DNA of 64,000 nucleotides. It comes from Escherichia coli. GTDB taxonomy: Bacteria; Pseudomonadota; Gammaproteobacteria; Enterobacterales; Enterobacteriaceae. The notes beneath the pieces are model-generated. The model saw nothing but the letters and a program-made list of their open reading frames with translations, searched no databases and was not told where the DNA came from. The translations under genes and the position numbers were made by a program. Of this stretch, positions 45,056 to 45,613 are shown in pieces. Location of the stretch: the NCBI RefSeq assembly GCF_017348835.2, contig NZ_CP071375.1, one strand, 5' to 3'. Positions within the stretch are counted from its first letter, which is position 1; the number at the start of each line of letters is the position of its first letter.

Positions 45056-45503
45056 GGGTAATCCTTTGTAAGACAGAGAGTAAAATAAGTTACACACGTC
45101 GTATTTATGGCCGTTCATAACGGCACAGGTTTAATATCACAGGAGTGTCTTTATCTGACCGTAATGTTGCAATTGATCTATTTTCAAAATGTCTTTCGGG
45201 AAATGATTGTTTAAAGTGTGTTTTTAAATTTCCATGTTAATTCAGTGTGTTATGTCAACTAATGTCATGAATGTTAAATTTTTAAAATTAACTTGATTTG
45301 GTGTATTGAGATATTTGTGATCTACTTCTAATTTGCATTTTAGTGATATGGGTTTAGCCATAAGTAAATGCATTTCATAAAATTTAAGTCGAATTTCACT
45401 ACCATTCATTTCTGCTTAATGTAAAAGTAATGTTGAAAATAACAAATGGTTAATGATTAATGCGAATTATGACCTTCGTTAGCTCTTTTGATTTGCGTAA
45501 AAA

Positions 45504-45527
45504 AGAGAGATACATAGAGAGATACAT
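45504..45527. repeat. Tandem 12-bp direct repeat in the promoter region of the glutamate-mutase operon
   Basis: agagagatacat agagagatacat, two exact adjacent copies in the AT-rich interval upstream of the S-subunit gene. Confidence 0.6.
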
Positions 45528-45613
45528 GAAGGTGCTACCAGTATGAGTAATGTTATTTAAAGGTTTTATTACGTCTGGCAATAACGCAGGTCATTTTTCG
45601 CGACTGGGTGGGT

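Follow-up and report, generated by a model that had tools for sequence, protein, structure and literature searches.

The 558-bp region in front of glmS (positions 45056-45613 of the window, by which we mean the whole 64-kb stretch of DNA analysed here) is probably composite, with only the glmS-proximal ~85 bp functional in a conserved sense, as a promoter combined with an operator bound by a LysR-type regulator. Within this short segment lies a palindrome that is invariant across enterobacterial genera, and we tentatively propose that it is the operator through which the GcvA-like LysR-type regulator of the cluster, together with an inducer, switches on a silent B12-dependent glutamate-fermentation operon. 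The remainder of the region, including an exact tandem repeat that had been singled out as a candidate operator, lacks comparable conservation.

The initial annotation described the ~560 bp upstream of the mutase S-subunit gene as an AT-rich control region, and both parts of this description are borne out. The region lies directly upstream of glmS, at the head of the glmS-glmL-glmE-mal-...-fumD-cobO operon, and contains 31.9% G+C compared with 51.0% in the whole window and 50.9% in the operon. The AT-rich tract extends as far as cydA (45056-47864, 35% G+C) and has two ORFs inside it. The features discussed below are as follows, the glmS annotation being that of the RefSeq record of strain PE164, which is 99.8% identical.

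34073-34978, plus strand: LysR-type regulator (GcvA/DsdC-like subgroup) linked to the cluster, facing cobO in convergent orientation where the operon ends (RefSeq annotation)
44606-45055, minus strand: glmS, which heads the operon and encodes the methylaspartate/glutamate mutase S subunit (RefSeq annotation of PE164, ORF list)
45056-45130, minus strand: rest of the predicted ~82-nt leader, with a hairpin GCCGTT-ATG-AACGGC at 45110-45124 and the ribosome-binding site AAGGAT at 45061-45066
45131-45138, minus strand: predicted transcription start (~45137-45138) and conserved TATTAA (45131-45136, ~+2 to +7)
45144-45149, minus strand: predicted weak -10 hexamer GACACT (nAnAnT)
45167-45172, minus strand: predicted -35 hexamer TTGCAA, adjoining the palindrome
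45173-45187, minus strand: predicted 15-bp palindromic operator TTGAA-AATAG-ATCAA, recognised by its invariance across genera
45188-45212, minus strand: upstream conserved block AAACAATCATTTCCCGAAAGACATT (operon strand), ~-51 to -75 from the predicted start
45215-45454, no strand assigned: weakly conserved AT-rich spacer, common to the genus Escherichia only
45455-45613, minus strand: 3' flank of an E. coli-specific AT-rich insertion, holding the tandem repeat
45504-45527, no strand assigned: exact 12-bp tandem duplication, two copies of AGAGAGATACAT on the plus strand and of ATGTATCTCTCT on the operon strand

The division of the region is directly visible in its conservation. Within E. coli, 2.4% of alignment columns vary in the promoter/operator part (45131-45212), compared with 20-35% further upstream: 20% of columns differ among E. 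coli alleles in 45215-45454, and 35% do so in 45455-45613 (nine E. coli alleles). The segment 45215-45454 is 82% identical to its counterparts in E. whittamii and Escherichia sp. E1V33, is unalignable with other genera, and contains no Rfam family match and no conserved ORF; it would be a non-conserved spacer. Homology to the same two Escherichia ends at 45454 and picks up again at ~47222, which places an E. coli-specific AT-rich insertion at about 45455-47221, and 45455-45613 would be its tail. This insertion carries two ORFs without assigned function that are not present in other genera. Neither a significant fold nor a terminator was detected in 45455-45613, and a promoter and terminator scan of the region returned promoter-like sites at chance level and no terminator 3' of the upstream ORF. 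Two small ORFs in the spacer (45242-45409 and 45450-45581) were considered and dropped, having no family match and frames and stops that differ between alleles.

We read 45131-45212 as the promoter of the operon, a weak sigma-70 promoter of the activator-dependent type that is overlapped by the palindrome, and we infer both this assignment and the transcription start from an alignment of 35 distinct sequences. The spacing is a direct observation: in all 35, TTGCnn is separated from (G/C)A(C/A)ACT by exactly 17 bp, with the letters of the spacer free to vary. TTG is present in 35/35 and the following C in 34/35, and the (G/C)A(C/A)ACT pattern at the -10 columns is likewise found in every sequence. 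In Yersinia, Morganella, Hafnia and Budvicia the matching columns read TTGTnn-17-CACATT. A sigma-70 promoter calls for hexamers 17 +/- 1 bp apart with TTG in the first and A2 and T6 in the second; here TTG, A2, A4 and T6 are all invariant, and these are the positions that matter in sigma-70 hexamers. Since TTGCAA and GACACT together agree with the consensus at only 7/12 positions, the promoter is predicted to be weak, and the site is missing from the list returned by a simple promoter scan. The start was placed from the position of the -10 hexamer, giving a predicted promoter made up of TTGCAA, a 17-bp spacer and GACACT, with transcription beginning at ~45137 and a leader of ~82 nt. The TATTAA element (ctaTTAA) follows 7 nt past the -10 in most Enterobacteriaceae and is not conserved in the Yersinia or Morganella group. 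A sigma-54 reading of TTGC(A/T) was rejected, there being no GG at the -24 position.

The rest of the leader, 45056-45130, is nearly constant within E. coli (2.7% of columns variable) and shows no conservation between genera. RNAalifold found no consensus helix in 24 predicted leaders, with three invariant pairs near the ribosome-binding site only, and the leader fold (z-score -0.88) is no different from that of shuffles. The hairpin is missing altogether in C. amalonaticus. Rfam gave no match to any RNA family, a cobalamin or other known riboswitch included, at E <= 1 in 44000-48000, and none reached the gathering score in 10 orthologous loci.

The palindrome at 45173-45187 (written TTGATCTATTTTCAA or ttgatctattttcaa), which the initial annotation had picked out for its FNR-like half-sites, turns out to lie at the heart of the one element of the region whose conservation runs deep. 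A 17-nt block, TGAAAATAGATCAATTG, is unchanged in the 35 distinct sequences, which come from about ten enterobacterial genera (Escherichia, Klebsiella, Citrobacter, Salmonella, Enterobacter, Lelliottia, Pluralibacter, Buttiauxella, Pseudescherichia and others), and its flanks are unalignable. Its core, TGA-N7-TCA (T-N11-A), is centred at 45180, and the same spacing is retained in Yersinia, Budvicia and Hafnia. The sequence occurs once in the 64-kb window. The position of this centre relative to the start predicted from the conserved hexamers, ~-43, depends on the predicted promoter. Shifted 5 bp upstream and overlapping this palindrome is another, TATTTT-G-AAAATA, which leaves the exact register of the operator ambiguous. 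Next to the palindrome, an anchored alignment of the 35 sequences gives 45188-45212 the consensus AAcaatc.TTTt..gaA.GAtaTT, with high information at TTT and A.GA. Yersinia, Budvicia and Hafnia have a related block, TTTTTCAAGA, at an equal distance, and Morganella has TTTTTGCAAGA. The regulator, or the alpha subunit of RNA polymerase, may make a second contact in 45188-45212; no clear T-N11-A dyad common to all genera was seen there.

The identity of the protein that binds the palindrome is of particular interest. FNR recognises TTGAT-N4-ATCAA, both FNR and CRP need TGA-N6-TCA, and a class II site is centred at -41.5. The palindrome could be such a class II site, with FNR at about -41.5 activating the operon under anoxia. 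Its right half-site, ATCAA, is perfect and invariant and adjoins the predicted -35 like the proximal half of a class II site, so that the region shares with class II FNR promoters a TTGA/TCAA inverted repeat adjoining the -35 of a weak promoter in front of an anaerobic pathway. The pathway is a fermentation in which FumD, an Fe-S enzyme, is oxygen-labile (PMC4682846). FNR boxes are also recognisable in the window, as shown by a perfect one at 47517-47530 in the cydA control region. However, while half-sites are indeed present at 45173-45187, they are 5 bases apart and not 4: the sequence is TTGAA-N5-ATCAA, and TGA-N7-TCA, 1 bp wider than the required TGA-N6-TCA, is found in every genus with no length variation. 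In the canonical N4 register the site agrees at 7/10 positions, its distal half being without the key G, and the outer T is C in Klebsiella and Yersinia. None of the matches to the FNR consensus with <=2 mismatches overlaps 45173-45187. The sole match of this quality in 45056-45613, TTGATTTGCGTAAA at 45488-45501, is not conserved, and ~0.3 are expected per 558 bp (mean 34 in shuffles of the 64-kb window). Moreover, anaerobic O157:H7 cultures with glutamate, with or without cobalamins, had no methylaspartate ammonia-lyase activity (PMC4682846), which tells against FNR alone being sufficient. Both the invariant spacing and these cultures speak against reading the palindrome as an FNR box, and we consider this explanation quite improbable.

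The suggestion that the distal LysR-type regulator acts here fits the evidence better than the other candidates do. Because the TGA-N7-TCA core is a T-N11-A box, this regulator is the best candidate for the binding protein. LysR-type regulators bind a T-N11-A box, of which the ATAC-N7-GTAT site of BenM is an example (PMC11495319). The 13-bp TGAAAATAGATCA has the T-N11-A form with a dyad around the T and A, TGA/TCA arms and an N7 centre, the same geometry as the BenM site. As in LysR-type target promoters such as those of benA and catB (BenM/CatM), the box, with dyad arms of 3 bp, lies partly over the -35 region of what is predicted to be a weak sigma-70 promoter. The cluster-linked regulator scores E = 3e-65 against the NCBIfam GcvA subfamily, under the cut-off of the family. 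Its linkage to the cluster was observed directly: it is the only regulator gene found with the cluster in every lineage examined (E. coli, Salmonella, Enterobacter, Citrobacter and Yersinia), and other nearby regulator genes are lineage-specific (PocR/AraC-type in Citrobacter sp. Cb080, GntR-like in C. sedlakii). The convergent arrangement with cobO is also seen in Salmonella, Enterobacter and Citrobacter. In Yersinia the orthologue lies 2.7 kb upstream of glmS on the opposite strand, and in the betaproteobacteria Rhodoferax and Aromatoleum homologues are directly divergent from glmS. From the box and this linkage we infer that the GcvA-like regulator is the preferred binder of the palindrome; it would activate rather than repress. 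Most likely, a specific activator on the palindrome, which overlaps the -35 side and would be centred near -43, recruits or repositions RNA polymerase at the poor -10; the best candidate for this activator would be the cluster's own GcvA-like LysR-type regulator, and without inducer the operon would stay silent.

Several features differ from the textbook arrangement and count against this reading. LysR-type promoters have a strongly symmetric regulatory site near -65 and weaker activation sites that overlap the -35, whereas the strongest dyad here is promoter-proximal, at ~-43 from the predicted start. The regulator gene of Enterobacteriaceae, instead of diverging from its target, sits at the tail of the ~10-kb operon, ~11 kb from the target promoter. 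Autoregulation would call for a related box at the regulator's own promoter, and none was detected: upstream of the regulator gene there is no match to the 18-mer with <=5 mismatches in Salmonella, Enterobacter or Citrobacter, and in E. coli there is a single match with 5 mismatches ~200 bp before the start codon and a chance-level TGA-N7-TCA 261 bp upstream. Neither the surroundings of the LysR gene nor the rest of the 64-kb window yielded a second operator copy. Dyads in the divergent intergenic regions of the betaproteobacteria likewise have sequences unlike the enterobacterial box. Two comparisons with other loci were set aside: a conserved ATATTCTGAA...TTCA block between the regulator and sumT in Yersinia resembles the left half of the operator with a different spacing; and distant homologues in Leeia and Pseudogulbenkiania (44-45% identical) are not beside glm genes and are uninformative.

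The conserved block could instead be bound by a protein encoded outside the cluster, either a global or amino-acid-responsive factor (Lrp/AsnC-type, NAC, IHF, ArgR-like) or an unrecognised regulator, with the LysR protein acting elsewhere or indirectly; the absence of a box at the LysR gene itself speaks for this. Compared by eye with consensus sites, the block gives partial matches to several of these. ATCAA-N4-TT, present in most genera, approximates the IHF core; ATA-N9-TAG can be set beside the NAC site, ATA-N9-TAT; TGAAA-WWW-nnTCA resembles the 13-mers of the archaeal and bacterial Lrp family; and the block agrees with 12/16 positions of an ARG box. However, the TT of the IHF core is missing in Escherichia (TTGCAAC) and in C. 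amalonaticus and Enterobacter (TTGCATC), there is no paired ARG box, and global factors have degenerate sites in which 17 bases seldom stay invariant across genera. All of these matches are weaker than the fit to T-N11-A. In the same comparison by eye, which can serve as a lead and not as a test, none of CRP, ArcA, NarL, Fur, Fis, Lrp, ArgR, NAC, IHF, Cra and NsrR fitted as well as T-N11-A does. A binder from outside the cluster seems to us unlikely, if less so than FNR.

Dependence on an activator would be in keeping with the poor hexamers and with what is known of the expression of the operon. The cluster, which we located between sucD and cydA, comprises glmS, glmL, glmE, mal, a DUF1446/AtuA-like gene, a gltP-like gene, fumD, cobO and the LysR regulator gene, and is the same glutamate-fermentation (methylaspartate/mesaconate) cluster as that described by Kronen & Berg in 2015 (PMC4682846). 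These authors characterised FumD and the distribution of the cluster, observed expression of the operon in none of the conditions tried, and did not describe the promoter or operator (PMC4682846). In RNA-seq of strain EDL933, Z0892-Z0895 stand at RPKM 0-3 in 11 conditions. Other LysR-type systems likewise consist of a catabolic operon that is silent without inducer and a linked LysR-family gene. As a lead only, TtdR of E. coli is a LysR-type activator of ttdABT, which serves anaerobic L-tartrate fermentation with a class I fumarase-like dehydratase; it would share with the present case a LysR-type regulator and an anaerobic dicarboxylate pathway with a fumarase-family Fe-S hydratase, but ttdR is divergent from its target operon. 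Our search found no literature on the regulation, promoter or operator of the cluster, and the promoter/operator, ordinary in kind as an activator-dependent promoter, is apparently undescribed.

About a fifth of E. coli, O157:H7 among them, carry the operon, as do many opportunistic enterobacteria. The cluster is present in many pathogens, and the published work ended without a condition in which it is expressed (PMC4682846). The predicted ~85-bp promoter/operator and a candidate regulator turn the open question of its expression into simple experiments. If the palindrome is indeed a LysR operator, over-expression of the regulator or effector screens would provide the conditions for expression that eluded Kronen & Berg. 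In E. coli specifically, it is also possible that the AT-rich insertion adjoining the promoter plays a part in silencing, in a manner resembling that of H-NS.

The tandem repeat in this insertion is of a different nature. The initial annotation was right that AGAGAGATACAT stands exactly twice at 45504-45527, head to tail (TRF period 12, 2.0 copies, 100% match). It is the sole exact tandem duplication of period 9-30 in the 64-kb window; 100 Markov-1 randomisations of the window gave none, and 0.1% of 2000 randomisations of the AT-rich tract gave one. Since randomisations almost never yield such a repeat, it is a real duplication and not a chance occurrence. Its proposed roles as an operator or as a slippage-prone site fare less well. 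A query spanning the junction of the two copies, run against 5426 complete E. coli genomes, returned two matches, so that by direct count the two-copy allele is present in 2/1135 genomes that carry the region, both from pig isolates. The repeat sits in the most variable segment of the spacer, ~450 bp upstream of glmS and ~90 bp beyond the stop codon of the upstream ORF, and inside the insertion that is missing from other Escherichia species and other genera. Because of this rarity, this variability and the restriction of the insertion to E. coli, it is neither a conserved operator nor a hypervariable site. One might still imagine a functional operator or a contingency switch, driven by slippage, for the operon or for the upstream ORF: the repeat is exact beyond chance, is intergenic, and has a unit length that is a multiple of three. 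A phase-variable locus, however, varies frequently in copy number together with expression, and here one- and two-copy alleles are the only ones seen. Moreover, the small ORF that spans the repeat is not conserved, its frame and stop varying between alleles, and the segment has no structure and no terminator, the single-sequence fold of the repeat region being no different from that of shuffles. We regard any such function as extremely unlikely. The repeat shows no sign of function and appears, from the alleles compared, to be a private, recent, one-step duplication that would have no regulatory role; as a distraction now removed, it merits no follow-up. Of the suggestion that the site is prone to slippage, recurrent variation finds no support, while a single slippage or duplication event is what the alleles suggest. 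The other seven aligned alleles have a single copy, as does every further allele inspected, and the closest single-copy allele, that of GF4-3, contains AGAGAGGTACAT once. The duplication probably arose by replication slippage on the TCTCTCT run, and would have come after a G-to-A change in one lineage.

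Upstream of glmS, we assign with high confidence a predicted promoter and, abutting it, an operator conserved well beyond E. coli. The operon belongs to an island between sucD and cydA, the glutamate-fermentation cluster of Kronen & Berg 2015 (PMC4682846), which is carried by 1135 of the 5426 complete genomes of E. coli; the window, a segment of the chromosome, is 99.8% identical over the studied region (45056-45613) to the pig isolates PE164 and F2_81. The cluster is already known, and we found no paper describing its promoter, operator or regulation. The features are as follows.

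45172-45167, minus strand: predicted -35 hexamer, from conserved hexamers
45149-45144, minus strand: predicted -10 hexamer, from conserved hexamers
about 45137, minus strand: predicted transcription start, giving a leader of about 82 nt
45066-45061, minus strand: ribosome-binding site AAGGAT
44606-45055, minus strand: glmS, first operon gene
then, minus strand: glmL, glmE and the methylaspartate ammonia-lyase gene, in this order
then, minus strand: AtuA/DUF1446-like gene, followed by a DUF4387 gene
last, minus strand: dicarboxylate/amino-acid symporter, class I fumarase FumD and cobO, in this order
34073-34978, plus strand: LysR-family gene, convergent with cobO
45614-46036, minus strand: 140-aa ORF upstream of the glmS intergenic region
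46118-47062, minus strand: 314-aa ORF upstream of the 140-aa ORF, with the cydA control region beyond

Relatives of glmS with their flanks were taken from one genome per species, and the upstream DNA was lined up. The 17-mer TGAAAATAGATCAATTG is invariant in 35 distinct sequences, from Escherichia, Klebsiella, Citrobacter, Salmonella, Enterobacter, Lelliottia, Pluralibacter, Buttiauxella, Pseudescherichia and some other Enterobacteriaceae, and the DNA around it is unalignable. The consensus anchored on it reads AAcaatc.TTTt..gaA.GAtaTTtTGAAAATAGATCAATTGCttCc, 13 variable positions, then agAcACTcc..c.ctaTTAA. Exactly 17 non-conserved bases separate TTGCnn from (G/C)A(C/A)ACT in every sequence, and the same columns in Yersinia, Morganella, Hafnia and Budvicia read ...CTGA(n)AATA(n)ATCAATTGTnn-17-CACATT. 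An invariant TTG, constant positions 2, 4 and 6 of the second hexamer, a fixed spacing and a free spacer together form the signature of a sigma-70 promoter. The predicted promoter matches only 7 of 12 consensus positions, which explains why a generic promoter scan misses it and leads us to expect that an activator is needed. Two fetched loci, L010 and L011, were omitted from the conservation analysis; their contigs come from metagenome-assembled genomes assigned to Collinsella and Citrobacter, yet the sequence is of E. coli type, with GlmS 97% identical and the E. coli-only ORFs present, which probably reflects mis-binning of E. coli DNA. In Citrobacter amalonaticus S646 (L021, about 3800-4000), the leader is lengthened by an insertion of about 100 bp, similar in appearance to an ERIC/IRU-type enterobacterial repeat, that separates the conserved promoter from the glmS start codon.

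The palindrome TTGATCTATTTTCAA noticed in the initial annotation is present at 45173-45187. On the operon strand it reads TTGAA-AATAG-ATCAA (45187-45173), with a conserved core of TGA-N7-TCA, and it abuts the predicted -35 hexamer, its centre at about -43. Its register is ambiguous owing to an overlapping second palindrome, TATTTT-G-AAAATA, displaced 5 bp upstream. Between about -51 and -75 there is one more conserved block, in which no dyad is clearly shared. The operator contains a GATC (Dam methylation site) that is invariant in Enterobacteriaceae; as Yersinia, Morganella and Hafnia have AATC or TATC instead, it is unlikely to be essential.

Which protein binds here? The FNR consensus is TTGAT-N4-ATCAA and that of CRP TGTGA-N6-TCACA, sites of both families being TGA-N6-TCA. 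The earlier description of the operator as FNR-like fails on this defining spacing: the one-base excess of TGA-N7-TCA is fixed in all genera, and the operator has no consensus match with up to two mismatches in a scan that does recover a perfect box at 47517-47530. Moreover, no methylaspartate ammonia-lyase was detected in O157:H7 grown anaerobically on glutamate with or without three cobalamins (Kronen & Berg, PMC4682846), so FNR alone would be insufficient, and we regard its binding to the operator as improbable.

The LysR protein encoded with the cluster, of the GcvA/DsdC-like subgroup, is a serious, if still tentative, candidate for the operator binder, on genomic evidence. With its dyad arms and 13-bp T-N11-A form, TGA-N7-TCA has the geometry that defines LysR-type sites, as in ATAC-N7-GTAT of BenM (PMC11495319). 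Orthologues 83-86% identical occupy the same convergent place after cobO-fumD in Salmonella, Enterobacter and Citrobacter; Yersinia has one of 63% identity, 2.7 kb upstream of glmS, and in Rhodoferax and Aromatoleum homologues of 42-45% identity are directly divergent from it. The LysR gene is the only regulator gene found with the cluster in all lineages that could be looked at; others nearby are lineage-specific and non-recurring (e.g. a PocR/AraC-type gene in Citrobacter sp. Cb080). The glm promoter would thus resemble LysR-type target promoters in box geometry and gene linkage, but site position and autoregulation do not support its membership: its strongest dyad is promoter-proximal, whereas theirs lies near -65, and no operator-related box occurs at the LysR gene itself. 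The ambiguous register, the want of a clear shared dyad in the -51 to -75 block and the betaproteobacterial glmS intergenic regions, whose dyads differ from the enterobacterial operator, further weaken the assignment, and a substantial share of the probability falls to some other protein. In the Yersinia LysR-sumT intergenic region (L052-L057, about 1310-1780), a conserved block, CATATATTCTGAAGAGTTCATTCC, has ATATTCTGAA in common with the glm operator as it occurs in Klebsiella, at a different half-site spacing (TGAA-N3-TTCA); the resemblance may reflect a related regulatory site or be coincidental.

Glutamate mutase needs adenosylcobalamin, which made a riboswitch worth excluding; no Rfam family matched the window region or ten orthologous loci. 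The predicted E. coli leader has a small hairpin (45110-45124) and an unremarkable fold energy (z = -0.88). Other genera have unrelated hairpins at roughly the equivalent place, C. amalonaticus has none, and RNAalifold recovered no consensus leader helix.

Strand-specific RNA-seq of EDL933, covering eleven conditions, put Z0892-Z0895 (mal, glmE, glmL, glmS) at RPKM 0-3 in all of them (PMC4048457, supplementary Table S4), and Z0895 had a mean count of about 5 in bovine digestive contents (PMC6199705). This silence fits a weak, activator-dependent promoter without its inducer. In kind, the glm promoter would be a catabolic promoter of the ordinary activator-dependent sort, equipped with a specific operator, which offers a precise, testable handle on the laboratory silence of an operon common in pathogens.

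The region is strongly AT-rich, as first described (G+C 31.9% against 51% for the window), and AGAGAGATACAT does occur twice in exact tandem at 45504-45527. It is the sole exact tandem duplication of period 9-30 in the 64-kb window; Markov-1 randomisation yielded none in 100 versions of the window, and randomised versions of the AT-rich tract around it contained one in 0.1% of 2000 cases. In an alignment of nine E. coli alleles, two copies occur in the window and PE164 only and one in the other seven. Of 5426 genomes, a 58-nt junction-spanning query matched two, the pig isolates PE164 and F2_81; among the matches listed in two other searches, all remaining records have a region about 12 bp or more shorter than in the window (537-546 against 556-558 bp). 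The closest single-copy allele, GF4-3 (96.6% identical), has AGAGAGGTACAT once, so a G-to-A change preceded a very recent duplication. Variable columns among the nine alleles make up 35% of 45455-45613, 20% of 45215-45454, 2.4% of 45131-45214 and 2.7% of the leader. By blastn, homology to other Escherichia species ends at 45454 and restarts at about 47222, and by tblastn the 140-aa and 314-aa ORFs are restricted to E. coli and one close relative, which places the repeat outside the ancestral DNA upstream of glmS, within the 3' flank of a module whose insertion is specific to E. coli. It is overlapped by no terminator, no significant fold and no small ORF that is conserved. We conclude that it arose once, by slippage, and has no function. 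Its proposed role as an operator is contradicted by its rarity, its variable setting and the insertion; slippage probably did occur, but with all other alleles inspected single-copy the site is not repeatedly prone to it, and the repeat was removed as a lead.

The AT-rich ORF module (about 45455-47221) sits between the conserved glm promoter and cydA; outside E. coli it occurs solely in one Escherichia sp., where it is degenerate. Neither ORF matched a Pfam, NCBIfam or PADLOC family. Tags beside it, Z0896 and Z0897, have almost no reads in EDL933 RNA-seq, the 'hypothetical' Z0896 having zero. Several RefSeq genomes (fetched loci L002, L005 and L006) lack one locus-tag number in the stretch from glmS to the 140-aa ORF, for instance RS04325 in FRIK2069, and a small spacer ORF was probably once annotated there and later removed. 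The perfect FNR box at 47517-47530, TTGATATAAATCAA, is part of the DNA upstream of cydA that different genera conserve; it probably corresponds to a known FNR site of the cydAB promoter and is unrelated to the glm promoter, 2.3 kb away. The AT-rich cydA upstream DNA also holds an imperfect 12-bp-period tandem repeat (47450-47477; 2.5 copies, 82% match, TRF consensus ACAATAAATCA). Finally, a scan for ATCAATTG found five near-identical tRNA-like 3' halves (…AATCAATTGGTCGCAGGTTCGAATCCTGCACGACCCACCA) at 56989-57690, presumably a tRNA gene cluster.
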